Virus record (IMG/VR): IMGVR_UViG_3300040856_003829
Span: 1 to 64,000 of that record
Origin: a virus
DNA length: 64,000 nt
Strand: one strand, 5' to 3'
The position numbers were made by a program, and so were the translations under genes. The notes below the pieces were generated by a model that worked only from the letters and a program-made list of their open reading frames with translations, ran no database searches and had not been told where the DNA came from. Below are positions 399 through 34,769 of the stretch, piece by piece. Every line of letters begins with the position of its first letter. The first letter of the stretch is position 1.

Positions 399-752
399 AT
401 GAAAAGGTTACTATTATCCCTTTTTTTCCTCACACCTTTTTTAGGATTTTCACAAACCGAATTATGTGACGGATATGGTGAAATTTGTGTGATACAATTT
501 AATGCAGGATTTAATGAAGCAAATAAAGTACAATGGTTACCTGAATTATCAGATTGTACTACATCATTTGTAGACATTTTAACTGATCCAACTATACCAC
601 AAACTTATAAAATCGTAGTGGTACCAACAATACTTATTATTGATGAAGGTGAGGAAGTTGGTCGATTCCAAGCTAACATTATGATGCAAATGGAATCCAC
701 AAAAGAGGATGTACAAAATTCAATAGAAGAAATAATCATGAGTAAATTTTAA
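399..752 (+). CDS. Exported thioredoxin-fold protein without CxxC
   Basis: Signal peptide ending GFS|Q; YKIVVVPTILIIDEGEEVGRF matches the thioredoxin cis-Pro strand region; no CxxC. Confidence 0.65.
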   Translation: MKRLLLSLFFLTPFLGFSQTELCDGYGEICVIQFNAGFNEANKVQWLPELSDCTTSFVDILTDPTIPQTYKIVVVPTILIIDEGEEVGRFQANIMMQMESTKEDVQNSIEEIIMSKF

Positions 753-757
753 ATAAT

Positions 758-3700
758 ATGAGATATCTTATATCACTATCTTTTTTTTTAATCAGTATGA
801 TTGGACTTGGTCAACCAACTTACTTAGATCTTTTTATACAATTTGACCAATACCCGTCTGAAACTTCTTGGTTAGTTACTTCAGGAAATGATACTATATA
901 TTCTAGTCCCAGTTATGATTTCCAAGAGTATGTTAATAGTACTGTAGAACAACGTTTATTTTTAGAATCGGGAGTAGAGTATAAATTTTACATGAATGAT
1001 ACATTCGGAGACGGAATTTGTTGTGATTATGGTCCTGGATATTTTACTCTAGAAAATGAATGTCAAGGTCTTATCGTTGAAGACCTTGAATTTGGTCAAA
1101 ATTCAATAGACTATTCATTTACTTTATCTCCTTGTATTCCAGAGATACCAACTGCTAATGTTTTATTTAGAGTAGATTTGGCTAACGCCCCTCCTTCAAT
1201 AGGAACTCCGGGTGTTTTAGGTAGTTGGAATGGTTGGCAAGTGATTCCAATGACTTATGATGAAAATGAAGAATGGTTTTTAGAAGTTGAAGTACCATTA
1301 GGAAACCATCTATGGAAATTTGCCGATTTTAACGATCCAAATATTCAAGAATTGCCTGTCGGAATTGATGGTGGTTCTTGTTTTTTATTTGATGGTAATG
1401 GATTCGTAAATAGAACTATAAACATAACTTCAGAAGAACAAGTGATTCTTCCCCCTTATTGTTGGGAATCATGTTTACCCTGTGGGGGTATAGCAGGGTG
1501 TTCTGACCCAAGTGCCCCTAACTGGAATCCTTGGGCAAATTTTGACGATGGTTCTTGTGTATCACAAAATATAGAATGTGCCCCTGGTGAGTCAGTACTT
1601 GAAATAGTAGTAACACCTGATAACTTTGGAGGTGAAACAAGCTGGTTATTATATGGACCTGGTGATCAAGTATACGCTACAGCACCCGCAGGTACTTATG
1701 CTGGATCTCCTGCTGGTGTTCCTATATCAACCGAAGTATGTGTTACTACAGGAGGTGAATATGACTTAGTTATAGAAGATTCTTTTGGTGATGGTTTATG
1801 TGGTCCTTGTGCTACTAATAATCCTAACCTTGTTACAGGTAATGTTGAAATTTTAGATTGTGATGGAGAAGTATTATGGAGTCTTTTAGACGAAAAAGAA
1901 GATGGTAACTTTGGATACAACATAACTTCAGCTTTAGTTTCCCCTTCTACTTCCTGTGGGTTAATATCAGTAATAGCAGGATGTACTGACCCAGCTTATG
2001 TTGAGTATAACCCAGAAGCTACTACTTTTTTAGCAGGGTCATGTGTAACACCTGTAGTAGTAGGTTGTACAGATCCTACTCAATTCAATTTCAACCCTGA
2101 AGCTAATACTGAAGAAATTATAGAATCTTGTGAGTTTACTTTGACTATTAAAGATGGTGTAGGTGATGGTTGGTTTGGGAGTTGGTTAGGAATATATCAG
2201 CTCGGTACAATATTTAATTCACCCCAATACCAAATGGGTCCTAATGATGGTACCGAATTATCATTTGATATATCTGGTTTAGATGCTACTCAACCTGCAT
2301 ATTTTTACTTTTTTGTAACACCTCAATCTATAGGAACAGCCCAACAGTGTGGGTTCACTTTAACTAACTCTAATGGTGATGTTATCATCGATGTTCCTTT
2401 CTTTAATATAATTCCTTTCATTAATGAAAGTGGTTGGTATAGGTATGAAGTAACTCCTTACTGTGGTAATACTTGTATTCCTTACATAGAAGGATGTACA
2501 GCCCCAGCAGCAATTAATTATAATGATGAGGCTAACACTAATGATGGTAGTTGTATATACTTCCCAGGATGTACTAACCCTGCATATGTTGAGTACTCTG
2601 AAGAGGCTGATGTAGATGATGGTTCCTGTTCAACATTAGTCGTATTTGGTTGTACAGATCCGGATGCTTTTAATTTTGATGAAGAAGCAAACACAGATAA
2701 CGATGGTTGTATTCCCAAAATATTTGGTTGTACTAATCCATTAGCTTTTAATTTCGATCAGAATGCAAACACTCCTGACGGATCCTGTATTGCAATTCAA
2801 GAGGGTTGTACCGATCCCTCAGCATTTAACTATGAAGAAAATGCGAATACCGATGATGGGTCATGTGTTGAAGTAATTTTTGGTTGTACATTAGATGGAT
2901 CATTTAATTTTGATCCTTTAGCTAATACAGATAACGGATCATGTATACCTAAAGTTTTAGGTTGTATGGATGATACCGCATTAAACTTTAACCCAGATGC
3001 TAATATAGAAGATGGTTCATGTATTACTGCAATCTATGGTTGTACAGATTCAACAGCATTTAACTACAACGAACTAGCGAATGTCGATAATGAATCTTGT
3101 ATTGAAGTAATAGAAGGGTGTATGGATCCATTAGCGTTAAATTTTGATCCATTAGCGAATGTAAACAACTTTGAATGTACAATCCCTGAATATGGGTGTA
3201 CAGATCCAACGGCGTTAAATTTTAATGAATTAGCGAATGTTGATAACGGAACATGTATTCAAGTTGTTGAGGGTTGTACTAACCCTGAGGCTTTGAATTT
3301 TGATGAAAGTGCTAATGTAGATGACTTTAGTTGTATACTTCCGATTTACGGTTGTACTGACCCAACAGCTTTCAACTACAATGAATTAGCAAATATCGAT
3401 AATGATTCTTGTGAAGAAGTAGTGGAAGGTTGTACTGACCCTGAAGCGTTGAATTATAACGAACTGGCTAATGTTGATGACTTCAGTTGTATATTACCTA
3501 TATATGGTTGTACAGACCCCGAAGCGTTCAACTTTAATGAATTAGCAACTGTAGATAATGGTACTTGTATAGAAATTGTAGAAGGATGTACTGATCCTTC
3601 AGCTTTTAACTTTAACCCGGAAGCAAACACTGAAGACTTTAGTTGTGAACCATTCATTTACGGCTGTACAGACCCACAAGCTGCTAATTATGATGAAGAA

Positions 3701-4138
3701 GCTAATACAGATAACGGTACTTGTGAGACAGTATATCAAGGATGTGTAGATCAAACAGTCGAAAGTTATAATTTACTCGATCCAGTAAATTCACAATGTT
3801 TTGCGTGGGTACTAGATGTGTCACCTGATTGTTGTGATAATGAATGGAATACTGGTTGTCAATCACTATATGAATACTGTTTCGAAAATGGAGAGACAAC
3901 AAATGTGAACGAAATACTCAATCAACAAATAATAGTATATCCTAACCCAACATTAGACATAATTAATTTCTCATCACAAATTAATTTTACAACATCTTTG
4001 TTCAATTCAATGGGACAGAAAATAATAGATCTAAATAATCCACAATTATTGGATATGTCCAAATATGAATCGGGGGTATATCAATTAATTATAGATGTTA
4101 ATGGAAATCAATTCAGTAAAAAAATAATTAAACAATGA
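758..4138 (+). CDS. Large exported Cys-repeat protein with T9SS type A C-terminal sorting domain
   Basis: Signal peptide GLG|Q; CBM48/early-set-like segment (VLGSWNGW..PM); 19 GCTDPxAxNY/FxxxANxDDGSC repeats; C-terminal IVYPNPT...GVYQL...KKIIKQ. Confidence 0.85.
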   Translation: MRYLISLSFFLISMIGLGQPTYLDLFIQFDQYPSETSWLVTSGNDTIYSSPSYDFQEYVNSTVEQRLFLESGVEYKFYMNDTFGDGICCDYGPGYFTLENECQGLIVEDLEFGQNSIDYSFTLSPCIPEIPTANVLFRVDLANAPPSIGTPGVLGSWNGWQVIPMTYDENEEWFLEVEVPLGNHLWKFADFNDPNIQELPVGIDGGSCFLFDGNGFVNRTINITSEEQVILPPYCWESCLPCGGIAGCSDPSAPNWNPWANFDDGSCVSQNIECAPGESVLEIVVTPDNFGGETSWLLYGPGDQVYATAPAGTYAGSPAGVPISTEVCVTTGGEYDLVIEDSFGDGLCGPCATNNPNLVTGNVEILDCDGEVLWSLLDEKEDGNFGYNITSALVSPSTSCGLISVIAGCTDPAYVEYNPEATTFLAGSCVTPVVVGCTDPTQFNFNPEANTEEIIESCEFTLTIKDGVGDGWFGSWLGIYQLGTIFNSPQYQMGPNDGTELSFDISGLDATQPAYFYFFVTPQSIGTAQQCGFTLTNSNGDVIIDVPFFNIIPFINESGWYRYEVTPYCGNTCIPYIEGCTAPAAINYNDEANTNDGSCIYFPGCTNPAYVEYSEEADVDDGSCSTLVVFGCTDPDAFNFDEEANTDNDGCIPKIFGCTNPLAFNFDQNANTPDGSCIAIQEGCTDPSAFNYEENANTDDGSCVEVIFGCTLDGSFNFDPLANTDNGSCIPKVLGCMDDTALNFNPDANIEDGSCITAIYGCTDSTAFNYNELANVDNESCIEVIEGCMDPLALNFDPLANVNNFECTIPEYGCTDPTALNFNELANVDNGTCIQVVEGCTNPEALNFDESANVDDFSCILPIYGCTDPTAFNYNELANIDNDSCEEVVEGCTDPEALNYNELANVDDFSCILPIYGCTDPEAFNFNELATVDNGTCIEIVEGCTDPSAFNFNPEANTEDFSCEPFIYGCTDPQAANYDEEANTDNGTCETVYQGCVDQTVESYNLLDPVNSQCFAWVLDVSPDCCDNEWNTGCQSLYEYCFENGETTNVNEILNQQIIVYPNPTLDIINFSSQINFTTSLFNSMGQKIIDLNNPQLLDMSKYESGVYQLIIDVNGNQFSKKIIKQ
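2492..3724 (+). repeat. Coding tandem array of 16 GCTD...C repeats, about 26 aa (78 nt) period
   Basis: Counted from the translation; DNA copies diverge at synonymous sites. Confidence 0.9.
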
Positions 4139-5190
4139 AAAAAATATTAATACTAAGTTTATTATTGATACCTTTTGTAAGTTTCGGACAAACAAAAGAA
4201 GAGTCTAACTTCAAAAAGAATCTAAAAAAGAATCTTAAGTTTGCAACCTTATATACTGCGGTAACTGGAAATAATTCACTAGCTGATGTGAATACATATT
4301 CCTTATTACCTGATGGTAGTTTAGAGTATGGTTCAGTACAAACTCCATTTGATTATACTTTAGCATTTGGTGTTAGAAAGATTGCAAGATTAGGATACGA
4401 AAATAGGAAAAATGTATTTTACAATGGTACTGAGACATCTGTTTCAGATGCAGCTACAGTAGGAAGAATAAAAGGATTAGAATTTTTATTTGAAGCTGAC
4501 TATAAAAGACAACAAGGTAATTACTTTGTAGATCAACAACATTTTTTAAGATATGTACATGACCATTGGATTTTAAAAGGTGAATATGTACAGGACGGTT
4601 TTGCCGATATTAAATATTTTGAGTCTTCACAAAGATATAGATACAATGTTGGGGAAAAATTATCATTCAATGTCGGTTTAGTACAAAGATTCTCTGAACC
4701 TTATGGATTTAACCCTCTATCCGATCTAGTCGGGGCTGATTTTACTTTAGTGGCTTTAGATGAAGGGTACTATAGTAATTTTGAGGGTCAATGGTTTGAT
4801 ATTGATGATAATCAAGTGGCGGACAATAGTGAAATTTGGAGAGGTGTTGTGTTACCTGACGTATTGAACAATTATGTTGAACAAGAAAGATCACAATTGC
4901 CAAATCAATGGAATCATTCATTGGTTTTAGGTTATGACTACTATCATTATACTAAAGACTTATGGTTACACTCTTGGGCCAGTGCATTACCATTACACGT
5001 CAGTAGTAAGAACGAATTTTCATATACTAACTTTATTGAAGGAAATCAGTGGTTTGATTACACCGCTGGTTTAATTTTTGGATATAAAATTAATAAAAGT
5101 TTGGGTGTTTTCTTGGAAGGAAAATATCACAAATACTGGAATCGTAATTGGCATGACTTCTCAGTAGGATTCAATTACGTAATAATATAA
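4135..5190 (+). CDS. Putative outer-membrane beta-barrel protein
   Basis: Signal peptide SFG|Q; aromatic-rich alternating beta strands; ends SVGFNYVII; start overlaps the upstream stop (ATGA). Confidence 0.65.
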   Translation: MKKILILSLLLIPFVSFGQTKEESNFKKNLKKNLKFATLYTAVTGNNSLADVNTYSLLPDGSLEYGSVQTPFDYTLAFGVRKIARLGYENRKNVFYNGTETSVSDAATVGRIKGLEFLFEADYKRQQGNYFVDQQHFLRYVHDHWILKGEYVQDGFADIKYFESSQRYRYNVGEKLSFNVGLVQRFSEPYGFNPLSDLVGADFTLVALDEGYYSNFEGQWFDIDDNQVADNSEIWRGVVLPDVLNNYVEQERSQLPNQWNHSLVLGYDYYHYTKDLWLHSWASALPLHVSSKNEFSYTNFIEGNQWFDYTAGLIFGYKINKSLGVFLEGKYHKYWNRNWHDFSVGFNYVII

Positions 5191-5217
5191 ATAAACTCGA
5201 ATTAAAATATAAACGAC

Positions 5218-5439
5218 ATGGGATTCAAAGACATTTTTAAAGACGAAAACGACATAAACGAAAAGTCAGTTGTAGGTTTTTTGTCATTCGCAGTTATGGT
5301 AGCAATAGCTTTAATTGATACTATCACTGGTTGGTTAGGACGTGATTTACTTATAAATGAATATATATACAATTCATTTGTAATAGTTACACTTGGAAGT
5401 TTTGGTATTGCAGGTATAGAAAAATTTGCAAAAAAATGA
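5218..5439 (+). CDS. Small two-TM membrane protein (holin-like topology)
   Basis: Two hydrophobic helices and a basic C-terminus. Confidence 0.6.
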   Translation: MGFKDIFKDENDINEKSVVGFLSFAVMVAIALIDTITGWLGRDLLINEYIYNSFVIVTLGSFGIAGIEKFAKK

Positions 5440-5744
5440 AATTAAACGATGACACTAGTTTTGGAATTAATATTAAATGGTTAATTCAAATTATTGTTGG
5501 TGTAGGAGGAGCAGTTTGGTTGTATTTTACAATTATGTCTGCTCTTACCCATCTAGAAATGGAAACTCTGAGGCATAATCAAGAAATAGAACTTAATTCA
5601 GAATTTCGTATTAAATGGCCAAGAGGTGAAATGGGCTCACTTCCCGATGATGCTGAACAAAATTTAAGACTTAATCATTTGGAAAGAGACATAGAACATC
5701 TTGAAATATTAGTTGATGAATTAAGACAAAAAAATTGTGAATAA
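5436..5744 (+). CDS. Membrane-anchored coiled-coil protein (similar to 113..397)
   Basis: TM helix plus coiled-coil; shared N-terminal motif. Confidence 0.7.
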   Translation: MKLNDDTSFGINIKWLIQIIVGVGGAVWLYFTIMSALTHLEMETLRHNQEIELNSEFRIKWPRGEMGSLPDDAEQNLRLNHLERDIEHLEILVDELRQKNCE

Positions 5745-11007: not shown

Positions 11008-11454
11008 TCAATTATTCCTAGAATTACTACTATTTCTTGGTTTTTTTTCTACCGATGGTGAATTAGGTCTCGTTGTAGACCCCACACCTCTCTGTCCGTT
11101 TATATCTCTTGTCTTATATTCATTTGGACCTAAAGTATTACCATATTGATCTTTATTACGACTATTTTCAATATTTTGACCAGACCAAATAGATGGTCTT
11201 TTAGATATTGTAACGTTTTGAGGTTTCGTTTCAGGATTTATATAGTAATAATTGTATTGGTTTCCATAATAAGGGGTAAATCTATTATAACCCCAATAAT
11301 ATGGTGATACATTGTTACCACTATTGTCAAAAAATGTGTAATTATTTGGTAAATCACAATTAAAATCAGAGTATAATTCGTCACATTGATAAGTCATCAA
11401 TTCAGGATTTATACATCCAATCAGTAATGGAAATAAGTAAAATAGTTTTTTCAT
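11008..11454 (-). CDS. Putative lipoprotein with low-complexity tail
   Basis: Lipobox LLIG-C; Tyr-rich middle and Ser/Asn/Arg-rich end; coupled to 11451..14774. Confidence 0.65.
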
Positions 11455-14400
11455 CGGAAAACAGTTATGTGACCTACTTTACGAACGTCTTTAATAGGTT
11501 CATAAGTACGACCTCTTATTATATAAGTATAAACTCCATCAGATACATAATACTCACCTCCTTGAAAACTTATATCCCAATAATCTGCGGGATTATTTGT
11601 TTCCCAAACTTTATTACCCCAACGATTAAATATAATCACTTCCCAAAAAAACCAACACTCTTCAGGGGTAACTGGGAACCATACATCATTAACTCCATCA
11701 TTATTAGGGGTAACAGTATTGGGAACATAAAGAGGTGGATCATCACATTCATATTCACATGATCCATCATTAACAATTGCCCATTCTTCATAATTCAAAG
11801 CTTCTGGATCAGTACAACCAGAACAAGTTGAGTTGTTTCCTCCACATATACCACATAAATCATATTCGTTGAAGTTACAATCACAATCACCTTCAGGTAT
11901 ATTATAACAACCACATTCATATATTGCTCCGGGACCTCCACAAATACCACATTCATCTAAAACGTTCCCATCACAATCACAAGCACCTTCCGGTATATCA
12001 TCACATCCACATTCATAGATAGCCCCTGGACCGTCACACACTCCACATTCGTCTAAAACATTTCCATTACAATCACAATCACCTTCAGGTATATCATTAC
12101 AACCACATTCGTATATTGCTCCTGGTCCATTACATACTCCACATTCGTCCAAAACCGCATCACCACCACATTCACCTAAACAATCAGGATATTCACAACT
12201 ACCATCTTCTACATTAGCTTTAGAGTTATAATTACAAGCTGTTGGGTCTGTACATCCAGATTCGAATGGAACACAAGAACCATCATCACAGGTTGCATTT
12301 GGATCATAATTGAAAAAATTTGGATCAGTACAACCTTCGATACATTCAACTGTAACAATAATGAAATACTCACCGAAATTATTGGTGAAATTCAATTCAT
12401 TAAGATTATTATTACCTAAAACATCAATTACGTTTATTTGTAACAATCCCAGAGGAAAATCATTAGGATCTGTACTGAATTGAATTGTAATTTCTTGACC
12501 TGGATTCAGATTATTACCACAATATATATTTCCTAAAGTAACTTCATCAACACAAAAAGAAGTTGCGACTGCATCCCCTACATTTGTCAATGTTAATGAC
12601 CAATCAATCATCGGATCACAAATAAATTGTGTACAATATTGAGTATTTGTTAATGATGTAATTTCAATATCAGGATAATCATATTCACAACTTCCATCAT
12701 CTAAATTTGCGTTTGGGTCATAATTATTTGCAATTGGATCTGTACAACCTAGGTATTCACAACTTCCATCATCTACGTTTGCGTTAGGATCATAATTATC
12801 TGCAACATCATCAGTACAACCCAAAAATTCACAAAAATCTTCACAGGTCGCATTAGGATTAAAATTAGACGCTAAAGGATCCATACAACCTAGAATACAA
12901 ACAGGAGGTGCTGGGAGGACTATACAGTACTGATTGTTTGATGAATTAATATCATCAAAATTTACAACATCCATATCAACACATAGAGTATCACCTTCTT
13001 GCCAAGTTAATTCTTGGTTTATAGTATTTATTACATTTGATACTCCTGGTTCAAGGATAAAATCAAGAAAATCTTGACCTAATCCGTAAACTGAATTGAC
13101 ACTTGTAAATGTATCAGTTGAATGCTGATAAGAATAGTTTTCAATCGGTAAATCTCCGACATTAGTATATTGAACATGAAATCTAATTCCTGGTGAACAA
13201 CTATCACCAGAATTAAAGATATTACAACTCGAATTTACAACCCAGACACTGTCCACTTGTATATCGTAATACAAACAACTACCATCATCTTCCTCGGCAT
13301 TCGGATTATAATTTTCAGCATTTACATCGGTACAACCTGGAATTAGACATGGATCCCAAATAAAATCTTCAGGTGATGTGAATATTAAAGTATCATTCGA
13401 ATTATTATTATCAAACGGAACTACATTATTTACTACAAACATTATTTCTGTAATCTCACCGAAAATAAAATTATTTTCAGGATTAATTGGGATATAAGCA
13501 AAGTCTTGAAAATCACCTGGTGGAATTTCTAACCAATAAAAATCTTCAGTATCGTAATCATATGTATTTACTAATGTATTATTAATATGTAATTCTACCG
13601 AGTATGAATCTGCTGTCACATCTCCCTCATTAATTAGTGAATAAGAAGGATCAAATCTCCATTGATTTGGTGGAAGACCTTCATAATTACAATCCCAACC
13701 AATTGATATATTACTGAAAGTTAAATCTGTATAAATACATGACCCATCGTCTACCTCAACCCATGGATAGTAGTTATATGCGTTAGGATCTGTACAACCT
13801 TCAGTCAGACATTGAGCGTATAAAATACCTTCTGTACCAATTTGAATTGTATTATCAGAACCCGGTATTTCACCATCAATACCAGAAAGAACTGCAGTTA
13901 TATTTTGTAAAGGAATATCGAAGTCGAAGTCTGAAGCCCATAGAGTATCATTATACTGATACTGAAACACAAAATTAGGTAAAATTAATTCATTAAAAGT
14001 TTCACTATAAAGTACTCCTTCGTCAGTATTATAGTACAAAGTAACAGTGAATTCGTCGAATGAAACATCACCAAAGTTATGGATATTAAATGATGGTATG
14101 AAAAACCAATCTAATGTATCTACAACATTAGCTACACATCCATATTGCATTTGTATATAAGGTATTGCACCATCGATCTCGAAACAATCACCTAATTGGT
14201 ATATATTGTTGTAAGGTGTAATGTCGGGATAAGTGTAACCATTATCGTATTGATCAATACAATTATCTTCACCATCGTTAAAACCATAAATTGAATTCGA
14301 ACAATTTATTTGCCAAATTGCAAGTTGAAGACATCCAGTATCAAAATAACCTAGACTATCAACTGTGTTTAAACATGAATCATTGAATGCCCCTACAACA

Positions 14401-22522: not shown

Positions 22523-23020
22523 TTACTGATTAACTACGTCGAATTGGTTATTATCAGCTCTTCTATTAATAGTAATAAAATAATCTGACAATTCTAAAAC
22601 ACCTGTAATTGATTCGTAAGTCCTACCATTCGTAAATCTAATCTTACTGATCGGTACAGTCTTGAATAAATTAACTTCACTTTCTCTAAGGTTGTACCAA
22701 GCGTTACCTTCACAATTAAACTTGTTCCAGGATGTTTTTGTAATCTTTTCACCGTTTTCGAAAAGAACAATCATTTCAACGTTTTCCACACATGATCCTA
22801 ATCCGACTATTTTAGCCATGATACCATCGAATACGGGATCAGGGGAGTTGTATTTCCATGCCGATTCTATTCTAAAACCAGCATTGTTTTCGATAAATAC
22901 TTGACCATCATCAGACCAATAAACTTTGTCTGACATTTCATCTACTATTTTAGTAAGTGTCTGTGAGTATGATGTTAATGCTATAAAAATACTAGCAATA
23001 ATTAGTGATAATTTTTTCAT
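22523..23020 (-). CDS. Exported hypothetical protein
   Basis: Signal peptide SYS|Q. Confidence 0.75.
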   Translation of the reverse strand: MKKLSLIIASIFIALTSYSQTLTKIVDEMSDKVYWSDDGQVFIENNAGFRIESAWKYNSPDPVFDGIMAKIVGLGSCVENVEMIVLFENGEKITKTSWNKFNCEGNAWYNLRESEVNLFKTVPISKIRFTNGRTYESITGVLELSDYFITINRRADNNQFDVVNQ

Positions 23021-23457
23021 TAGTAATATCGTTTTTTAATTTTATTTGTTACTTCCGTTTTAGGTATTATATAATGATAAACGTCATCTGTGTCTAAATC
23101 ACTTATAGCGATATAAAAACGATGACCATGTAAATTCCAAACAGTGTTGACTGGTATACCGTTGAGTAACATTCGATCATCTATTTTGAATGCACCTCTG
23201 AGTAAACCCTTACCTACCACACATCTATCAATAATATAATTAAGTTCCTTTTCTTTTATGTATAATATATCCTTTTGTAATTCCTCACCATAAGGTAGAA
23301 GATTACCATATTCATCGATGTTAGGTTGACTCTGTTCTAAGCCTAACAATACCTCATAGTAACCATCATTGGTTTGTGAGATCATTGACAATGAACATAA
23401 TATTGATAAAGATAATATTAATATTTTTTTATTCATCCTCATTTTGTTTTTGTCCAA
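23020..23457 (-). CDS. Exported hypothetical protein
   Basis: Signal peptide MIS|Q; true start probably an internal Met. Confidence 0.65.
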   Translation of the reverse strand: MDKNKMRMNKKILILSLSILCSLSMISQTNDGYYEVLLGLEQSQPNIDEYGNLLPYGEELQKDILYIKEKELNYIIDRCVVGKGLLRGAFKIDDRMLLNGIPVNTVWNLHGHRFYIAISDLDTDDVYHYIIPKTEVTNKIKKRYY

Positions 23458-23911
23458 AATAACTGAAATAATATTTATGTGGTGGGTATCCTAAATACAT
23501 GTATGTCCACTGACCATAGTGTCTCAATCTTCCAGTTTCCCAAAATCTCCACTTCTGGTCTTCATCGTCAAATGACAAAATGTCTACATCGAATTCATTG
23601 TATGAGCCAAGATCATCTTCACCTTCTCTCATTTTTCCAATATAATTACAGAAATACTTAGCTTCACCAATATCATTTACCATCACGGTACCGAACATAT
23701 CATCTCCTCCCTCAGAACTATAGAAGTCTACATTGAATACAAACTTCCATTCACGAGTACTACCATTATCGTAAATCCAATCACCATCGACAGATTTCCA
23801 ACCTCTTAGTCTTTCGTAGGTCTTAGAAAAAGACCCTTCGATTTCTACATATTGACCATAAGAGTTAGAAATAGTCAAACATAGTAATAATAAACCTAAT
23901 AATTTTTTCAT
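23429..23911 (-). CDS. Exported hypothetical protein
   Basis: Signal peptide SYG|Q; aromatic-rich. Confidence 0.7.
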   Translation of the reverse strand: MKKLLGLLLLCLTISNSYGQYVEIEGSFSKTYERLRGWKSVDGDWIYDNGSTREWKFVFNVDFYSSEGGDDMFGTVMVNDIGEAKYFCNYIGKMREGEDDLGSYNEFDVDILSFDDEDQKWRFWETGRLRHYGQWTYMYLGYPPHKYYFSYFGQKQNEDE

Positions 23912-24931: not shown

Positions 24932-25525
24932 TTAATTATTAATAAAAAATTCTGTCCAATCAATACCTTTCACATTTTTATTTTCAAAATAAAAACTAAA
25001 GGAATCATTATTTACTATAATAGTTTTTCTGAATGCGTCAGGTACTGTAGCACCACTATCTAATTCTTCACTTTCATCTGAAAAAATCACTTCAATAATT
25101 ACTTTAACTTCTCCATATAAAAATGCTAAATCTCTCTCTAACCCTTCGAGGGATTTCCAGGGACCTCTATTTAGTGATTCATGTTGTAGACTACAATTTA
25201 AGTAACTAAATGTTTGTCTTAGAGTTTCTTCATTACATGAAAATGCTGCTGCAGGTGCCATATGACCTTTATCCCACACATTATTACGATAATCATCATT
25301 ATCAGAAGTATGGACATTTTTATCTTTTACAAAGTCTAAACCAGATCTAGAAAATTTACCGTTTGTACATTTTACCAGATATTTGACTTTAAGGGGTTGT
25401 TCTAACTTTTCAGAATATGACACTTCGAACACATCATTTTTAATTTCAATTATTTGTGAATATGAAGTTAAAAATGAAAGTAGGGTGGGTATAAGTAAAA
25501 TTAGTTTTAAATTATTCATTACCAT
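24932..25525 (-). CDS. Exported DNA/RNA non-specific endonuclease (NucA family)
   Basis: Signal peptide SYS|Q; DKGHMAPAA, TF.YLN..LQ...LN.G.WK.LE and VP..F.K motifs. Confidence 0.88.
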   Translation of the reverse strand: MVMNNLKLILLIPTLLSFLTSYSQIIEIKNDVFEVSYSEKLEQPLKVKYLVKCTNGKFSRSGLDFVKDKNVHTSDNDDYRNNVWDKGHMAPAAAFSCNEETLRQTFSYLNCSLQHESLNRGPWKSLEGLERDLAFLYGEVKVIIEVIFSDESEELDSGATVPDAFRKTIIVNNDSFSFYFENKNVKGIDWTEFFINN

Positions 25526-27689
25526 GTAAATATATTTTTCTTGTAATTATATCACCGTTAGAATAATATTCAACTATTATGTAAATTCCAGGGGTTAGTG
25601 TTGCATCTTGATTAGTCTTTCTACCCATAATGTCATAAAATTCTTTATATATTATTTCTATGCAATTGGGATCTTTAATTTCTGTAATATTAGATACTTC
25701 ACCATATGTTTGGTTTATCAAATCAAAAACCCATTCAGGAGGTGAATTGACTATTGTTTGTTCTGAACCGCAAACCGTTCCGTACACCTCTAATAAATCT
25801 AGAATATCATTTAAATCTATTTGTAAATCATTATTGAAATCAAATTCACTACATTCAATTAATTGACCAGGAGGTGTCGATAAAAATGTAAGTAAGTCTT
25901 GGATACCTACTGTTCCATCACCATCAAAGTCTCCTTGACATTCTACTGGAGGACAATATAAAGTACAAAAATCAACTTCTAGTATACTACCGTAGTCTAA
26001 TTCGTCTAATTGAGATAGATCAAATATGATGTTCTCATTTACTATTATATTAATAAAAACATTATAATCTGCGTCACACACTCCGTCATTGTTGAAATCA
26101 AAAGCACACATACCATCACCGTTAGTATCAGTAATTATAAAAGTATAACACCCGTCAGGTAAACAAGAAGATTTTACAAATATTGAATCCTGTTGAAATG
26201 TTGACCAATTACCGTCATACATTACAACTTCTCCAGACTCATCTATTATTTCCCAATTAATTTCATTTGACCATACATCAGGACTTATGTGTACTTCAAC
26301 CCAGTTTTGTTCAATAACTTCAACTACTTGTGTGATAGTGTTATTTCCCAAGAATTCATCTAAATCATATAATACTTCAGCTTCAATTATACCATCACCT
26401 AAAACAAAATCATTAATGGGTATTAAAACAAATCCTGAAGGTTCGATAGTTGGTACATTATACTGAGTATTATTAACTAATAAAGTTACTCCTTCAGCGG
26501 GTTCTCCACCAAAATTGTTTATTTTAACATTGAAGTCTATAGTTTCTAAACACCAATCTGAAGGAACTGTTATAGATGTTATACCAACGTCCTTAGAAGT
26601 AGGTGATTGACAAGATACATTATCAGTTGACACTAGATAAGGTAACCCTGTCCAAACTTCTTCACGCATACGTTCAATTTGTCCTTGAGTAAATGCGGTT
26701 TTACATTGTTCACCCGTGTAGTCCATGTAATTTTGTAACATTGCATCAGGACAACTAGCAAACTCAGGAGAACACCCTTGGTTAGAAGTTGTTGGGGGAG
26801 TATCTGGAACTTGATCTCCTTGAGTACATGGGTTAGTTTCAGAATCACAATCTGAGGTTGTAAACCCATTACTAAAAGTGTGGAATAAATTAAAAGCATG
26901 TCCAATTTCATGTGCCCAAGTAGCATTTAATTCTCTGCCAGATTTTAGTGTGCCCGTAATCCCCGTTACATTATATAAACAAACTGGGCCATAGATGTAT
27001 CCGTTTATTCCTGTGCCAGAAGAACCAAGGTATGAAAATCCTTGAATACCATTATTACCATTATTACCATTTATTTCAGTAACTACATAGCAATTAAAAT
27101 ATTTATCTACTGGCCAATGGTATAATTGTTTTAAGTAAGTATGGGGGATTCCAGTAAGCCCAGGGGCAGTTCCAGGATCATTACTTATACCATCTTCAGC
27201 GTATGATTCAAATACGGGTTGACTACCAGCATTATTAGTATAAGTTAGGTCACTACCATCGTATCTCATAATACCATCAGTTGGTTCATTGTTTGGATCG
27301 CGAGCAGCCAAACAAAATTCAATTTTTGAGTCTTTTACTAATGATAATTCATACTCGTCATATTGATCAGTTAGAGCAGCTAAAGATTCAACATCACCTC
27401 TAAATCGATGATTAAGATTTTCTATACAACTTAAGATTTGTTCGTCGGAGATATTGGTCTCCACCCCCAAAGGTTCACCTAAGTGTATTACGTGAAACAC
27501 TACTGGGATAGTAAGTACTTGTGCTGTGTCTAAATCGACTTCGGGTGCACAAGCAACTCGTTCCGTATATAATTGTTGTAGAAACGGATTTCTACGAATC
27601 ATTTCATCAGTTCCACATTCGTCTTGAGAAAACGTAATAAACGGAACTAATAAAATTAAAGATAAGAAAAAACTTTTTAAGTTTACCAT
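25512..27689 (-). CDS. Exported M43 (pappalysin-like) zinc metalloprotease with dockerin/EF-hand-like repeats and a T9SS-like C-terminus
   Basis: Signal peptide TFS|Q; CGT Cys-switch; HEIGHAFNLFHTF; NYMDYT Met-turn; GDFDGDGTVGIQDLL; YDIMGRK..PGIYII; start moved to MVNLK (27689). Confidence 0.88.
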   Translation of the reverse strand: MVNLKSFFLSLILLVPFITFSQDECGTDEMIRRNPFLQQLYTERVACAPEVDLDTAQVLTIPVVFHVIHLGEPLGVETNISDEQILSCIENLNHRFRGDVESLAALTDQYDEYELSLVKDSKIEFCLAARDPNNEPTDGIMRYDGSDLTYTNNAGSQPVFESYAEDGISNDPGTAPGLTGIPHTYLKQLYHWPVDKYFNCYVVTEINGNNGNNGIQGFSYLGSSGTGINGYIYGPVCLYNVTGITGTLKSGRELNATWAHEIGHAFNLFHTFSNGFTTSDCDSETNPCTQGDQVPDTPPTTSNQGCSPEFASCPDAMLQNYMDYTGEQCKTAFTQGQIERMREEVWTGLPYLVSTDNVSCQSPTSKDVGITSITVPSDWCLETIDFNVKINNFGGEPAEGVTLLVNNTQYNVPTIEPSGFVLIPINDFVLGDGIIEAEVLYDLDEFLGNNTITQVVEVIEQNWVEVHISPDVWSNEINWEIIDESGEVVMYDGNWSTFQQDSIFVKSSCLPDGCYTFIITDTNGDGMCAFDFNNDGVCDADYNVFINIIVNENIIFDLSQLDELDYGSILEVDFCTLYCPPVECQGDFDGDGTVGIQDLLTFLSTPPGQLIECSEFDFNNDLQIDLNDILDLLEVYGTVCGSEQTIVNSPPEWVFDLINQTYGEVSNITEIKDPNCIEIIYKEFYDIMGRKTNQDATLTPGIYIIVEYYSNGDIITRKIYLHGNE

Positions 27690-29707
27690 GAATTTATATA
27701 TATTTTTTTTGTTATAACAGTACCATCCGACCATTTCTCAGTCACTAGATATACACCAGGACTTAAATCAGCAGGAGATAATACAATTACTTGTTTTCCT
27801 GACATATCATAATAAGAAGGATCACCAACAACATAATGATCACTTAATGAAATATATTTTTTATTTTCTATTACACCTTCAGCACATAACATACCGTAGT
27901 TATCGACCAATAAATTAATATCGTCTTGATTTATAAAACCATCGAAATTAAAATCCCCAGGAGTACAATAACCAACTTCAGTATCCATATTAGTTAGTAA
28001 TACAAGTAAATCTTTGTTATTTACTACATTATCGTCATTTAAATCCCAAGGACAGATATCTGTTTCTAATTCACATGTATAGTCAACACAGAAATTTTCA
28101 CTATATTCTGACCAACTACCACTACTAGTATATGAGGAAATTTCCTCACCATTTATTGTTATAGTATATTCACCACCATATTGCCACCCATTACCATCAC
28201 TATCATATAATGTAAGGGTGTAACAACCGTCTGGTAAGCATAACTCATATACACGAGTTGTAATACCAGCACCAAATCCTCCCTCATCTAACAGCACATT
28301 ACCAACTTCGTCAGTTAATGTGTAAGTATTTTGATTTGCAAAAAATTCAGTTGTAACTGCAAGTTCAAGTAGACTTTCGTTTTCAACTATTACACTTTCG
28401 AAAGCTGTGTTGTTAGAAGGGTATTCATCACCATCTAAAATAACCTCAAAATTAAATTGACCATTACCTAAAGTATAATCTACAAATTCCATAACCGTAA
28501 AATCACCACTAGGGATGGTTGGTAGATCATATAGTGTGCCATTTATTGAAAGTACTCCATCAACAGCATCATCACCACCTAAATTATTAACTTTAACATT
28601 AAAACTTATAAGACTTTGACACCAACTTTCAGGTAAACCATAAACACCTGTTATTGCCAGATCTTTAGAACTTAATGACTGACAATTATAGTTGTTATTT
28701 ATTACTCCATTCATATCAGACCATAACACATTCCTCATCTCTTCTATCTGGTTTTGAGTAAACATAATCCTACAAGATTGACTTGTATAATCCATATAAT
28801 TTTCAGTTATTGCATCTTCACAATCTGGAAAACTACAACTGATATTTGAACTTGTTACTGGGGTATCTGGTATGTAATCACCATTAGTACATGTAGATTC
28901 GCCAGTACAATTCGTTGTGTTCCAAAATGTATGATATAAACCTAGTGAATGACCTACCTCATGTGCAGTAGTTGAATTTAAATTACCTAATTTTATGTTA
29001 CCTACAGTACCTGCCACATTATAAAGTAATACTGGACCTGAATTACAACTCGTACCGTAGTAACCAATATATGAGTATCCTTGTATACCTCCTCCTCCGT
29101 TATTACCACCTATTTCAGTTACTATCCATATATTATAGTATTTTTCAGTATCCCAACAACCTAGTGTTGATTTCATCCAGGAATCACTAATACCTGAAGA
29201 TTGACTGTCTATTGCAACACCATCTTCAGCATAAGATTCACCATTATATACTAAATTGGACCCATCATGTCGGACAATACCATCTGTTGGTTGATTATCA
29301 GGATCCCTTTGAGCCATACAGAATTCAATTTTACTATCTATTGCCAATGATAATTGATATTCATCATATGATTGAGTACCTGAACTTGATACTAATTGTG
29401 ATAAAGCATCTGTATCGGCCCTAAATCTATGATTTAAATTTTCAACCATACTTAAGACCTGTTCATCTGAAATATTTGTCTGCTCCCCAACTGGTTCACC
29501 TAAATGTACAATGTGAACAACTACAGGGATAGTAAGAACTTGTGCCGTGTCTAGATTAACTTCTGGTGCACATGCAACTCGCTCCTCATACACTTGTTGT
29601 AAAAACGGATTTCGATTTATTATCTCATCGGTACCGCATTCTTCTTGTGAAAACACAGAAAAAATCGAAATAATGTAAAAAACCGACAAGAATAATAGAT
29701 TTTTCAT
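27683..29707 (-). CDS. Second exported M43 zinc metalloprotease, tandem paralogue
   Basis: Signal peptide VFS|Q; HEVGHSLGLYHTF; NYMDYT; DLNDDNVVNNKDLL; YDMSGKQ..PGVYLV; start moved to MKNLL (29707). Confidence 0.88.
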   Translation of the reverse strand: MKNLLFLSVFYIISIFSVFSQEECGTDEIINRNPFLQQVYEERVACAPEVNLDTAQVLTIPVVVHIVHLGEPVGEQTNISDEQVLSMVENLNHRFRADTDALSQLVSSSGTQSYDEYQLSLAIDSKIEFCMAQRDPDNQPTDGIVRHDGSNLVYNGESYAEDGVAIDSQSSGISDSWMKSTLGCWDTEKYYNIWIVTEIGGNNGGGGIQGYSYIGYYGTSCNSGPVLLYNVAGTVGNIKLGNLNSTTAHEVGHSLGLYHTFWNTTNCTGESTCTNGDYIPDTPVTSSNISCSFPDCEDAITENYMDYTSQSCRIMFTQNQIEEMRNVLWSDMNGVINNNYNCQSLSSKDLAITGVYGLPESWCQSLISFNVKVNNLGGDDAVDGVLSINGTLYDLPTIPSGDFTVMEFVDYTLGNGQFNFEVILDGDEYPSNNTAFESVIVENESLLELAVTTEFFANQNTYTLTDEVGNVLLDEGGFGAGITTRVYELCLPDGCYTLTLYDSDGNGWQYGGEYTITINGEEISSYTSSGSWSEYSENFCVDYTCELETDICPWDLNDDNVVNNKDLLVLLTNMDTEVGYCTPGDFNFDGFINQDDINLLVDNYGMLCAEGVIENKKYISLSDHYVVGDPSYYDMSGKQVIVLSPADLSPGVYLVTEKWSDGTVITKKIYINSW

Positions 29708-29769
29708 AAAAAATTTATTAGATTTTAAAAAAATTATACTCGAGTCGTTGTCCATAAATAGTACATTTA

Positions 29770-30225
29770 ATGAGAAACATTTTACTTTTCATATTAATTT
29801 ATGCTTCAACACATTTTAGTATTTATGGTCAATCATCAGGAGTAGGTTTCTTATTTGATGAAACGTCTTTTTATTTCAGTACTGATAATCTTAATTTTAC
29901 AACTGATGTATCACCTTGGGGTTTTTATACCACATATAGGATGATTTTGATACCTGGTGACCCCCTTATCGTAAACAATGCATATCTCAACAGACTAGGT
30001 TTAACTTACATGAGTAAATCGGAGGTTATTAGTCTAGGTTGTGGGGTAAAAATGACTTATGATAGTGAACCACAATTTCATCCAGATTTTATGTTTAAAT
30101 TTCACCCATCTCGAATTTTTACAGAGAAGACCCGGAATGTTGACGTTGGTTTACTTTTTAATGTATCAAATACATTGGATTTTGGGGTTTGTTTATCACT
30201 TCCTTTTGTATTAAACAGGTATTAA
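29770..30225 (+). CDS. Exported beta-rich hypothetical protein
   Basis: Signal peptide IYG|Q. Confidence 0.6.
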   Translation: MRNILLFILIYASTHFSIYGQSSGVGFLFDETSFYFSTDNLNFTTDVSPWGFYTTYRMILIPGDPLIVNNAYLNRLGLTYMSKSEVISLGCGVKMTYDSEPQFHPDFMFKFHPSRIFTEKTRNVDVGLLFNVSNTLDFGVCLSLPFVLNRY

Positions 30226-30265
30226 AACATATTTATTTGATATAAATCAAGTAAATTTATAAAAA

Positions 30266-33232: not shown

Positions 33233-33247
33233 TATATATTTATTATT

Positions 33248-34390
33248 ATGGAGAAGAAATTATTGAATGAGATAAGTCGTTATAGAGAGATTCTAGGTCT
33301 AGACTCTATTTTAGAACAAGAAAATAAAAGAGCTGAATTCAGATTCAAGCTCGGTGGAGATCTGATTTTTAAAATTTCAGATAATGGTAATGGTAATTCT
33401 CTAGAAGTTGCAAATGATACTTCAGGACCTAAGAAGTATACTGATATTGGAAATGCTAGAAGTGTAGTTTATGATATCACCACTGGAACTGCCGTTGGAG
33501 AAGGGACACCAGGTTTCAAAAATTATCAGATTGCGAATGAAATTCAATTTGATAGAGATAAATATCCAGATCAGAAACCTTGTAAAAGAGGTAGTCAAGG
33601 ACAGTCAGCATTGGCCGGTGGAGTATCACTTTATACAGGAAAAAGTTTTTATGTTTTAGATATACCAAGAAATGTAAAAAATCCAAATATCAAATATCCT
33701 ACAATAAGATTACTTTGTGTCAAAAAATCTTCAACAGAGATGGGTACTGGATTACCAAAAAACAGACGTGTAGATTCTCCTCAAATTAGATTTGGTCAAT
33801 ATTGGTGTGAAAAAGGAAAACCTGGAAAAGGAAAAGGTTGTTACTTTTTAGAACCAAATGGTATGGGTCCGAGAGCGGAGGAGTTTGGACCCGCAGAAAA
33901 ACAAGTAAGAAGACCAATTGAAATACAATTTAGAATCGGAAACCCATTCGTGTTCAACTCAGTTGATTTCTTACCTCAAGGTCAATCAGAATTTGATAAG
34001 AAAATTCAAGAACTAAATGCAATATTCGAGGAACAACCAGATTACAAGGAGTTTTTGAAACAAAATCCAATAAATATACTTGGTTTCTCATCCCGTGATG
34101 ATGATCCAGAAGGTCCTAGACCAAGTCAGGGTTGGCCATTTAGTCCTTGTTCTAATAGATCAAAAAGAAAAGACTACAACCTTTGTTTATCACAAAAAAG
34201 AGCTGAAAGAGTTGCTGAGTTGTTGAGTGCAAAATATCCAGATCTAAAATTCAATCCAAAAGGTATGGGTGAGAATTGTGATAGTGGAAATTGTTGGAAA
34301 CCCGGTAAGAAGAATCATGACTCGAAGCAAACTGCAATGGACAGACGATTTGAAGTGAAACTTCCCAAGTACACTAGTCAAATTAATTAA
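33248..34390 (+). CDS. OmpA-like peptidoglycan-binding domain protein without signal peptide
   Basis: C-terminal F.FNS, I.GFSS, YNLCLSQKRAERV, GMGE and DRRFEV motifs; N-terminal LLNEISRYREILGL leader. Confidence 0.75.
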   Translation: MEKKLLNEISRYREILGLDSILEQENKRAEFRFKLGGDLIFKISDNGNGNSLEVANDTSGPKKYTDIGNARSVVYDITTGTAVGEGTPGFKNYQIANEIQFDRDKYPDQKPCKRGSQGQSALAGGVSLYTGKSFYVLDIPRNVKNPNIKYPTIRLLCVKKSSTEMGTGLPKNRRVDSPQIRFGQYWCEKGKPGKGKGCYFLEPNGMGPRAEEFGPAEKQVRRPIEIQFRIGNPFVFNSVDFLPQGQSEFDKKIQELNAIFEEQPDYKEFLKQNPINILGFSSRDDDPEGPRPSQGWPFSPCSNRSKRKDYNLCLSQKRAERVAELLSAKYPDLKFNPKGMGENCDSGNCWKPGKKNHDSKQTAMDRRFEVKLPKYTSQIN

Positions 34391-34769
34391 AGATATAGAT
34401 GGTCGTTCTATTTCGACCATACTTTTCATCTGTATATTCTCTAGTCTCGATAAAAACATACTTAGAATCCATCTTGTATTCTGGTGTACCGTATTCTTCT
34501 TTGACAAATGATGTTACATTGTCATTACCATATTTAAAACAGTGGTAACCTGTACAAAAATAATCACCATGTGTCAACTCTTTGTAAAGTGAATCTTCAT
34601 CATGAATAAACATCATATCAGAAATGTTAAGATCATAATGTTGAGTAAGACTATCAATATAAACATCTTCCAGATCATTAATTGATACCCAACATGAAAT
34701 AACAAAGTCATTCTGAGCAATTGACTGTAGAGAAATAAAAGAGAGTAAGAGGACTAATACGTTTTTCAT
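34383..34769 (-). CDS. Exported hypothetical protein
   Basis: Signal peptide SIA|Q; start moved to MKNVL. Confidence 0.65.
   Translation of the reverse strand: MKNVLVLLLSFISLQSIAQNDFVISCWVSINDLEDVYIDSLTQHYDLNISDMMFIHDEDSLYKELTHGDYFCTGYHCFKYGNDNVTSFVKEEYGTPEYKMDSKYVFIETREYTDEKYGRNRTTIYIFN

Follow-up and report, generated by a model that had tools for sequence, protein, structure and literature searches.

The stretch of DNA analysed here (hereafter the window) is the first 64 kb (positions 1 to 64,000) of a 96,160-bp contig, a linear virus record of IMG/VR (IMGVR_UViG_3300040856_003829). It encodes a set of proteins with predicted signal peptides after which the first residue would be glutamine (Gln, Q). 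The initial annotation had listed twelve open reading frames (ORFs) with a signal peptide followed directly by Gln (SP-Q ORFs), four ORFs with lipoboxes, and four with C-termini of the kind carried by type IX secretion system (T9SS) cargo. All 16 ORFs of the SP-Q and lipobox classes exist at the coordinates given in this text. The SP-Q ORFs encode the following predicted products (aa, amino acids; a slash marks the predicted cleavage site):

399..752, plus strand: exported thioredoxin-like protein of 117 aa, GFS/Q, with homologues in 7 loci
758..4138, plus strand: Cys-repeat protein of 1126 aa, signal peptide GLG/Q, type A domain at residues 1060-1126
4135..5190, plus strand: exported protein of 351 aa, SFG/Q, from a virus-specific family with 2792 relatives
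11451..14774, minus strand: protein of 1107 aa, NYA/Q, with a conserved N-domain, two-Cys repeats and a type B (CHU_C) domain
22523..23020, minus strand: exported protein of 165 aa, SYS/Q, with 296 representative relatives at E<=0.001
23020..23436, minus strand: exported protein of about 138 aa read from an inner ATG, MIS/Q, no family match
23429..23911, minus strand: exported protein of 160 aa, SYG/Q, with a 42% homologue in viral locus L176
24932..25519, minus strand: exported DNA/RNA non-specific endonuclease, SYS/Q (PF01223, 92.7 bits; phrog_14168 nuclease)
25512..27689, minus strand: M43 zinc metallopeptidase, paralogue 1, TFS/Q, with a half-length type A-like tail (PF05572, 64.5 bits)
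27683..29707, minus strand: M43 zinc metallopeptidase, paralogue 2, VFS/Q, with a half-length type A-like tail (PF05572, 63.6 bits)
29770..30225, plus strand: exported protein of 151 aa, IYG/Q, ending ...VLNRY, with 4 relatives
34383..34769, minus strand: exported protein of about 128 aa, SIA/Q, a signal peptide then Gln

Export signals of the predicted secretome

Applied to the 121 non-overlapping ORFs of the 96-kb contig, our hydrophobicity/charge heuristic flags all 12 named ORFs as resembling substrates of signal peptidase I (SPI). A stricter classifier returns 11 clean SP-Q ORFs, two doubtful ones (34383 and 37324), three lipoproteins and one signal-anchor-like ORF from the same 121, and flags no exported ORF in the 64-96 kb part of the contig. 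The twelve N-termini have a basic n-region, an uncharged core of at least nine residues and signal peptides of 18-21 residues; nearly all of them have small residues at -1 and -3. In 34383 the first Q lies inside the h-region (LQSIA/Q), the second being the likely cleavage-site Q. Under a site-free rule that takes the first D, E, K, R or Q beyond residue 8 and chooses no cleavage site, the residue found is Q in 12/12 SPI-type ORFs. With a proteome background Q/(D+E+K+R+Q) of 0.109, the chance of this outcome is 0.109^12 = 2.8e-12, and the count of twelve in the initial annotation stands. The motif [small]-x-[ASG]-Q by itself is not rare, occurring anywhere in residues 14-45 of 14/109 other ORFs; the SP-Q signal is the motif combined with the n- and h-regions.

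The Gln is kept in four families although their signal peptides otherwise vary. Q is the first polar residue after the h-region in 116/120 listed relatives of 4135-5190 (Q19 is invariant in 24/24 aligned sequences of that family), in 103/120 listed M43 peptidase relatives (one without a hydrophobic N-terminus), in 110/150 listed representatives of the 22523-23020 family (11 without a hydrophobic N-terminus) and in 4/4 relatives of 29770-30225, all of which have S/QSS. SP-Q ORFs are also unusually dense here, with 12 per 64 kb compared with 13 strict and 5 doubtful in 837 kb from 80 related viral loci, a density about 9 to 12 times that of the related loci (Poisson 2.7e-8). Together the 12 SP-Q and four lipobox genes total 16,725 nucleotides (nt), which is 26.1% of the window, matching the earlier estimate of roughly a quarter, and 17.4% of the contig. 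That the hydrophobic N-termini are instead uncleaved membrane anchors or phage-internal targeting leaders, with the Gln incidental, is hardly credible: the signal peptides were called without SignalP or proteomics, which leaves such a reading some room, but all twelve have the n-region, core and small -1/-3 residues of cleaved signals, and Gln is the first polar residue in 12/12 of them and in most of the relatives counted above.

The 1126-aa protein, whose signal peptide is MRYLISLSFFLISMIGLG followed by Q by our heuristic, matches PF18962 with 32.7 bits (cut-off 27) over residues 1060-1124 of 1126, with 38.2 bits in a six-frame scan, and TIGR04183 with 33.2 bits (cut-off 23). It passes both curated models and is a predicted T9SS type A cargo. 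The 1107-aa protein matches PF13585 CHU_C with 53.2 and 57.6 bits (cut-off 27) and TIGR04131 with 29.8 bits (cut-off 35), and both its N-domain and its tail have homologues in the short viral type B proteins described below. The type A cargo is 26-27% identical to the type B cargo over about 600 aa. Both share a two-Cys repeat of about 24 residues (CTDP.A.NY....A..DDGSC.Y) but differ in the sorting domain at their end; further matches of the repeat are to a 'virion structural protein' of Synechococcus phage S-CAM3 and of Marine virus AG-345-P14. Among GenBank phages, the type A and type B cargoes are matched only via the Cys repeats or the tail (5 and 8 records). No PorP/SprF-like gene (PF11751, E<=0.1) was found in the 96-kb contig, itself 32% of the genome, nor was one found beside the type B gene in M43-bearing viral loci; the type B protein would therefore need a host partner.

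The tails of the two M43 peptidases are more divergent. TIGR04183 gives 15.7 bits for 25512-27689 (cut-off 23) and no match for 27683-29707; PF18962 has no match to either at E<=1 in the six-frame scan, and none in the 120 listed M43 relatives. A type C sorting domain (NF033708) was rejected for both, since their scores of 12.6 and 13.4 bits are far below the cut-off of 40. When the final 95 residues of 118 family members were made into a profile and aligned by hhalign to nine type A domains of Gillisia limnaea, the two matched with 94.6% probability (E 6.9e-8) over 43 columns. These columns form the C-terminal half of the type A domain and include the motifs YD..G, L.pG.Y and KKI. Control comparisons with type B tails (0.7%), a reversed alignment (0.5%) and 20 column shuffles (<=0.6%) give no comparable match. 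The M43 tails thus appear homologous to type A domains, as half-length tags whose recognition by the T9SS is putative. Of the four T9SS-type C-termini first proposed, one is upheld as type A by both models, one as type B by Pfam though not by TIGR04131, and the two called degenerate type A hold as homologues of half the domain, the curated hidden Markov models having failed on them. Overall, the sequence evidence supports the view that the exported proteins carry Bacteroidota-specific export signals, namely Q at +1 and sorting domains of types A and B.

The lipobox class was defined by [LVIF]-x-[GAS]-C at the end of the h-region and comprises the following predicted products:

11008..11454, minus strand: lipoprotein of 148 aa, lipobox LIGC, no family match (Pfam, NCBIfam, PHROGs)
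19392..19673, minus strand: lipoprotein of 93 aa, lipobox FLSC, no family match
20080..20268, minus strand: lipoprotein of 62 aa, lipobox LISC, no family match
37324..37848, minus strand: protein of 174 aa with a hydrophobic N-terminus and the atypical lipobox ATICTGC, no family match

Three of the four lipoboxes are canonical, and 37324..37848 is doubtful as a lipoprotein. The 11008..11454 gene starts within the stop end of the type B cargo gene, the two having 4 nt in common. PHROGs and Pfam give no family match for five small SP-Q proteins or for the four lipobox proteins. The nuclease 24932..25519 is predicted to be periplasmic because it is without a sorting domain. Two genes at 24115-24929, in the middle of the minus-strand SP-Q cluster, encode proteins that have no signal peptide: an FKBP-type prolyl isomerase (89.6 bits) and a 4HBT thioesterase (45 bits). 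A candidate phage glutaminyl cyclase ('M28-like', 44159-45202) was rejected, as it is a Peptidase_M42 protein (25.2 bits) without a signal peptide, and the M28-type cyclase model (PF04389) has no match in the 96-kb contig.

An M43/type B pair and an envelope cassette in viral genomes

Both M43 paralogues, which are 43% identical to each other, score well above the PF05572 cut-off of 23. The HExxHxxxxxH zinc site is conserved, its residues H265, E266, H269 and H275 being invariant in 27/27 sequences. The phage peptidases belong to a family of 669 relatives, the phage members of which are at least 43% identical over 94-100% of their length, and tblastn of the second paralogue against GenBank phages gave no match. 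A search of IMG/VR with the M43 alignment returned 23 loci, 22 of which hold a family member. In 12 of these 22 a type B gene lies directly 3' of the M43 gene, and in two more it lies 1.3 kb downstream (14/22). The pair-bearing loci represent 10 distinct sequence types with guanine-cytosine (GC) contents of 0.32-0.56; many unrelated phages share the pair. The product of the gene 3' of M43 has an SP-Q signal, followed by a conserved 'QCD.EI' N-domain, and ends in a ...GH.T.FR tail; Pfam CHU_C scores of 51.5-62.9 bits, all above the cut-off, were obtained for 11/11 short type B proteins tested. In locus L002 the pair immediately precedes the genes for terminase (682.7 bits) and portal (631.9 bits), and in L004 it lies between a 2647-aa protein and replication genes; in L176, the closest relative, M43, type B, a 23429-like gene and an endolysin-like gene lie within 8 kb.

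Bacterial M43 relatives (79 loci, mostly Flavobacteriales such as Cryomorphaceae) are 29-40% identical to the phage proteins, with matches that end at about residue 341-580 of 690. That the pair is an operon captured from a host was rejected: 0/79 of these bacterial loci have the phage type B N-domain, and four have a CHU_C-like tail in the flanks. In the ESM Atlas, the short type B protein falls in a cluster that is 100% viral. The N-domain of this protein was also considered as CARDB-like, and this was not used, the structural neighbour being weak (TM 0.39, Atlas model pLDDT 0.54). By these comparisons, the M43 and type B pair is a virus-specific module. Secreted M43 peptidases of Flavobacteriales resemble the phage proteins in having a Peptidase_M43 domain and a Sec signal, and those of Bacteroidota are T9SS cargo; the phage proteins differ in their tail, a truncated type A-like domain that fails the curated models, and in an identity of at most 40%. 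Mirolysin of Tannerella forsythia is a secreted M43 peptidase.

Two side observations concern the M43 genes. In a group of high-GC IMG/VR contigs (L183-L187, L189, L190, L191 and L194-L196; GC about 0.55-0.57), M43 follows three conserved genes of about 305-380 aa and one of 552-655 aa; these 5' genes may be structural. Five contigs of this group without a type B partner have a conserved 281-aa ORF downstream instead. Separately, 28 of the 40 listed variant places of 22001-42000 fall in 26835-27570 (736 bp, inside the first M43 gene), and contigs of both DNA runs described below break at 26890-27004, 27500-27661 and 28294-28508. This pattern suggests that the M43 genes are a microdiversity hot spot, to which related strains may contribute, reads having been accepted from 90% likeness.

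The operon at the left end of the window (113-5744) forms an envelope cassette, in which the 399, 758 and 4135 genes are accompanied by three genes for small membrane proteins; a fourth gene listed here adjoins 29770..30225:

113..397, plus strand: protein of 94 aa with an N-terminal transmembrane segment and coiled coil, first gene of the operon, homologues in 20 sampled viral loci
5218..5439, plus strand: protein of 73 aa with two transmembrane segments, homologues in loci L047, L071 and L033, no family match
5436..5744, plus strand: protein of 102 aa with a transmembrane segment and coiled coil (phrog_20984, 111.8 bits), found in at least 598 IMG/VR stretches
30266-30874: endolysin-like gene (phrog_33083 endolysin, 62.4 bits), directly 3' of 29770..30225

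The 94-aa protein is a paralogue of the 102-aa protein. The thioredoxin match of 399..752 is sub-threshold (15.9 bits), and its homologue in L047 passes (24.4 against 23.5). The 351-aa protein has no match to Pfam or NCBIfam at E<=0.1, and no Pfam domain was found in its 120 listed relatives. In the ESM Atlas, 30/30 of its nearest clusters are viral, and the nearest named ones (autotransporter, OmpG and Phage_OMP, at 0.93-0.94) serve as leads only. On this modelling basis, it is probably an outer-membrane beta-barrel. The likeness to PF24653 Phage_OMP, OmpG and autotransporters offers a precedent for phage-related outer-membrane barrels; the difference is that the shared features number 148-162, below the level typical of a true family, which leaves the barrel a candidate fold. 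We rejected the protein as PorP/SprF or another T9SS outer-membrane component, since it has no Pfam/NCBIfam match, no PF11751 match and a consensus without Cys. SprF, as far as its description in PMC12635249 goes, has a twin-Cys C-tail. The 73-aa protein is holin-like by size and position, and 29770..30225 is possibly a small outer-membrane protein. A PAP2-superfamily phosphatase (36.2 bits), in which a signal peptide is not evident, is encoded near the operon at 8875-9408, and its possible substrate is a lipid or undecaprenyl-phosphate.

The 102-aa protein is 82% identical to its copy in a phage with a GC content of 0.50, and 80-87% identical to copies in viral contigs of GC 0.43-0.52; the GC content of the present phage is about 0.31. 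So high an identity is unusual in a small membrane protein of a phage and points to a host contact under constraint. Of 80 loci, 21 have a Peptidase_M15_3 gene (70 bits) no more than four genes away from the 102-aa gene, directly downstream of it in 18, and nine have a 52-aa gene with two transmembrane segments directly 5' of the 102-aa gene. The 94-aa, thioredoxin-like, barrel-like and 73-aa families recur together in L047, L079 and L083, and the thioredoxin-like and barrel-like families stand inside M15-linked cassettes in L055, L058 and L079. The cassette of the window is a version of a widespread virus cassette, here with an added Cys-repeat type A cargo. No endolysin adjoins it, and its possible outer-membrane partner is the barrel-like protein, unlike the lipoprotein of two-component spanins. 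Because its families adjoin M15 endolysins in other, smaller phages, part of the secretome can be tied to lysis cassettes; the 29770 gene and the M43 genes abut the endolysin-like gene at 30266-30874 in the window itself. As the cassette families, 29770 and M43 all adjoin endolysins, a role linked to egress or lysis is at least as likely as host take-over.

The motif ATATTTAT occurs 27 times in the window against 13.7 expected, a count reached in 0/100 shuffles (example sites at 89, 33236, 38321, 55047, 56909 and 59420). Exact copies lie 4-45 nt upstream of many start codons, including those of the portal gene, other structural genes and the envelope operon, where the copy is 16 nt 5' of gene 113..397. 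By its position, the motif is probably a phage promoter element. No exact copy precedes the minus-strand SP-Q cluster, which has only one-mismatch versions that were not counted.

Phage identity, probable host and integrity of the record

Three hallmark genes lie within the 53-63 kb part of the contig:

within 53-63 kb: large terminase (phrog_2, 137 bits)
within 53-63 kb: portal (phrog_213, 222 bits)
within 53-63 kb: major head protein (phrog_138, 230 bits)

The contig further encodes 11 transfer RNAs (tRNAs), one transfer-messenger RNA (tmRNA), DnaK, a ClpB/C-like ATPase, Hsp20, an HNH endonuclease and a PPK2-domain protein; no integrase was found on it. CheckV puts its completeness at 32%, from which the whole genome is probably about 300 kb. 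It is a fragment of a large, uncultured, lytic-looking phage of estuarine and marine waters. Its head protein is at most 42% identical to that of any GenBank phage, the best named relatives including the Flavobacterium phage 'immuto' group, and megablast of 53259-62684 against GenBank phages gave no match. The nearest cellular DnaK proteins are 61-70% identical; by record naming, 79/80 of the nearest listed loci are Bacteroidota, mostly Flavobacteriales. Judged from these sequences, the host is most likely a T9SS-bearing member of the Bacteroidota, of the Flavobacteriales. Elsewhere in the window, the PPK2 domain (PF03976, 245.7 bits) is part of a 636-aa protein at 31322-33232, in a phage region 3' of the endolysin-like gene, and a cluster at 43740-47806 combines the tmRNA, with its 21-residue tag, with genes for the Peptidase_M42-like protein (25.2 bits), the ClpB/C-like double-AAA ATPase and Hsp20.

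The exported genes are phage genes, not host DNA, and the record is not chimeric. Over 38 kb, tRNAs and phage-type genes lie in between the exported genes, and GC content stays between 0.275 and 0.394 across the window (2-kb windows). Twenty-one DNA runs, from estuary and seawater in 2020 and 2025, hold 73-98% of the sampled words of 22000-31000. Contigs of two of these DNA runs, neither of them flagged as a possible source of the record, tile most of 22266-42000 with 0 differences, leaving short gaps inside the M43 genes; in run X4, a 6.9-kb contig covers 28632-35550 with 0 differences and carries the second M43 gene, the 29770 gene and downstream phage genes. Three features would suit an assembly chimera or mis-binned host DNA, with exported genes from a Bacteroidota chromosome joined to phage: it is in cellular genomes that T9SS cargo and Q-rule proteins are typically found, the contig is linear and a fragment, and its hallmark capsid genes lie at least 15 kb from the last exported gene. 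We nonetheless rate that explanation as extremely unlikely. Not only do the exported genes alternate with tRNAs and phage-type genes at uniform GC, but the same families also stand beside terminase, portal and endolysin genes in independent IMG/VR contigs, and the Atlas clusters of the barrel-like and short type B proteins are 100% viral. The tiling breaks in 22266-42000 fall inside M43 genes and not at gene boundaries, and bacterial M43 relatives are at most 40% identical. The chimeric assembly that the initial annotation had named as a threat to its reading is thus contradicted both by the neighbourhoods of these families elsewhere and by identical contigs from independent runs.

Contigs of two metatranscriptomic libraries match 22727-22977, 23665-23908 and 34446-34731 with 0 differences. 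These stretches lie in the SP-Q genes 22523, 23429 and 34383, and other phage genes are matched too. The RNA runs X22 and X23, which leave 11/30 and 23/30 of the 667-bp bins of 22001-42000 uncovered, are uninformative.

Export route, purpose and relation to known systems

Export through the host Sec and T9SS machinery is well supported by the signals that the proteins carry. The initial annotation had gone further, to a remodelling of the host envelope by these routes; the export signals bear out its first half, and the remodelling itself is an inference. The route proposed here draws on what PMC5837995, PMC9143113 and PMC12618676 describe of these pathways. Host Sec would export the proteins, signal peptidase I would cut just before the Gln, and host glutaminyl cyclase would turn it to pyroglutamate. 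The nuclease, the thioredoxin-like protein and the small proteins without a further signal would stay in the periplasm, and the barrel-like protein would insert into the outer membrane. Proteins with sorting domains would cross the outer membrane through the host T9SS, the type A cargo then being released or linked to anionic lipopolysaccharide (A-LPS) and the type B cargo held by a host PorP/SprF-like protein. The exported set would act on the envelope and surface of the infected cell around lysis: the cassette 113-5744 may help envelope disruption, and the M43 and type B proteins may together cleave proteins of the cell surface or mask them, limiting superinfection or the loss of progeny on debris. 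We rate as quite likely the account as a whole, with at least 16 envelope-directed proteins that are built to the export rules of the host phylum and would act around lysis. Action on the envelope or surface near release is favoured because the modules lie near lysis genes, because ATATTTAT is shared with structural genes and because phages on 60-64 kb contigs keep the pair as well. It would consist in aiding the breakdown of the outer layers, or in destroying or masking receptors.

Flavobacterium phages use gliding and T9SS surface proteins as receptors. A bolder joint proposal, which we offer as a conjecture with the odds against it, is that M43 and type B form a virus-specific surface device, installed by the host T9SS before lysis, that strips or masks T9SS-anchored receptors, and that the barrel, coiled-coil and thioredoxin-like cassette is a substitute for spanins. 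The first part of this same unlikely proposal would amount to a receptor-destroying or superinfection-exclusion strategy of phages that infect gliding Bacteroidota.

Much of the evidence that ties the secretome to lysis would also suit a plainer account, in which the set is mostly lysis machinery (holin, spanin and outer-membrane-disruption apparatus), that is, ordinary phage lysis in Bacteroidota dress. The M15_3 genes near or directly downstream of the 102-aa family (21 and 18 of 80 loci) and the two-transmembrane gene upstream of it (nine), the thioredoxin-like and barrel-like families inside such cassettes (L055, L058 and L079), the endolysin-like gene abutting 29770 and M43, and the ATATTTAT motif that the operon at 113 shares with the portal and other structural genes all point that way. 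It is a possibility to be taken seriously, yet we think it doubtful for the set as a whole: T9SS export precedes lysis and places cargo outside the cell, no endolysin is adjacent to the cassette of the window, and 9/16 genes are without a neighbourhood link to lysis genes. To our knowledge, lambda Rz/Rz1-type spanins need no 1100-aa T9SS-sorted fibre, zinc protease or nuclease.

The main alternative for purpose is nutrient acquisition, in which the secreted M43s and the nuclease would degrade more protein and nucleic acid outside the cell or in its periplasm and so nourish it while a jumbo phage completes a long infection. None of 27 M43 sequences departs from the catalytic residues and the nuclease match is strong (92.7 bits), the bacterial relatives are secreted M43 peptidases, mostly of Flavobacteriales, and the phage also has a PPK2 domain and other metabolic genes; added enzymatic capabilities have moreover been proposed for Cryophage cargo (endoglucanase, GH39) in the text of PMC7468147. 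Feeding is nevertheless unlikely to be the purpose, for the pair is kept on 60-64 kb contigs beside packaging and replication genes, with a non-enzymatic type B partner, and looks like a dedicated device; the concentration of 28/40 variants in 26835-27570 fits conflict-driven over metabolic evolution, if weakly.

Several points weigh against the favoured account of envelope-directed proteins exported by the host and acting around lysis. The contig covers only 32% of the genome, the signal peptides were called by our own heuristic and not by SignalP, and the presence of a T9SS and a glutaminyl cyclase in the host is an assumption. The type B cargo falls below the TIGR04131 cut-off, and the M43 tails, which pass neither PF18962 nor TIGR04183, align to no more than the 43 C-terminal columns of about 75. 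The barrel call depends on language-model neighbours (0.93-0.94) that share fewer than 170 features with the protein, and the best E values of a PDB profile search with the 351-aa protein are only 2 and 2.9. The type B partner is absent in 5/22 loci (L183-186 and L189), in three of the 22 the contig ends inside M43, and in the window itself the M43 and type B genes are 10 kb apart and M43 is duplicated. The RNA-library matches are a weak hint of expression, DNA carry-over being possible, and all functions beyond export are read from gene neighbourhood.

The initial annotation had called such a secretome unexpected for a lytic-looking phage, which is overstated: phage type A cargo (PMC7468147) and phage Q-rule proteins (PMC10367356) are published, at least in outline in the text of these papers, and the families found here are large and virus-specific. 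As described by Bellas et al. 2020 (PMC7468147), Cryophage has three type A cargoes (endoglucanase, GH39 and PA14). Like the present phage it is an uncultured phage of a Bacteroidota-type host, with type A cargo presumed to use the host T9SS, and its cargo genes vary between variants, as variant places here cluster in an M43 gene. The present phage differs in having one type A cargo, one type B cargo and two half-tail M43s together with 12 further exported proteins, and in that its M43/type B pair and envelope cassette are conserved across many viral contigs. Matrishin et al. 2023 (PMC10367356) describe five Q-rule phage proteins in Porphyromonas gingivalis prophages, likewise genes of unknown function whose predicted cleavage exposes Gln and which are read as an adaptation to host secretion. 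Those five genes belong to temperate, tRNA-Pro-inserting phages of an oral pathogen, and 'T9SS' and 'type IX' have 0 occurrences in the text of that paper; here, by contrast, 12 genes lie on a large marine phage fragment without an integrase, with conservation of the Q at family level.

In Bacteroidetes cells, SPI cleavage exposes an N-terminal Gln in most SPI substrates, as stated in Bochtler et al. 2018 (PMC5837995) and PMC10653852. The cellular rule thus holds for 'most' substrates in these accounts, whereas it holds here for 12/12 phage SPI-type proteins. The cyclase of this pathway would be supplied by the host, the 96 kb holding no M28-type cyclase. For type B proteins, Gorasia et al. 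2022 (PMC9143113) describe anchoring of the C-terminal domain proteins by PorP-like proteins, as in PG1035-PorP and SprB-SprF. The phage protein resembles PG1035 and SprB, so far as they are described there, in its C-terminal CHU_C/type B domain, its large repetitive surface-protein architecture and its Sec signal, but the constant neighbour of the phage type B gene is an M43 protease and not a PorP/SprF-like gene.

Phage T9SS type A cargo and phage Q-rule proteins were thus already known in outline from those papers. New here are the scale (26% of the window), a phage type B cargo and the M43-then-type-B pair (14/22 viral and 0/79 bacterial loci). In the literature we found no report of a phage type B cargo or of the M43/type B pair, though the supplementary gene tables of Bellas et al. 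and Matrishin et al. may list further cargo, and none of a half-length tag or of family-wide conservation of Gln at +1 in viral proteins.

Flavobacteria-type bacteria play a major part in degrading marine particulate organic matter and do most of their extracellular work via the T9SS. If phages routinely load a protease, fibres, barrels and a nuclease into this route, infection would alter the surface activity and binding of these cells, and such an altered infected-cell surface, if real, would matter for the host range of phages, for superinfection and for attachment to particles. The M43/type B and cassette families are abundant, virus-specific and uncharacterised (669, 2792 and at least 598 members for the M43, barrel-like and 102-aa families) and could be tested in Flavobacterium johnsoniae, which is open to genetic work. 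A strict Q at +1 would, in addition, offer a simple marker for assigning uncultured phages to Bacteroidota hosts.

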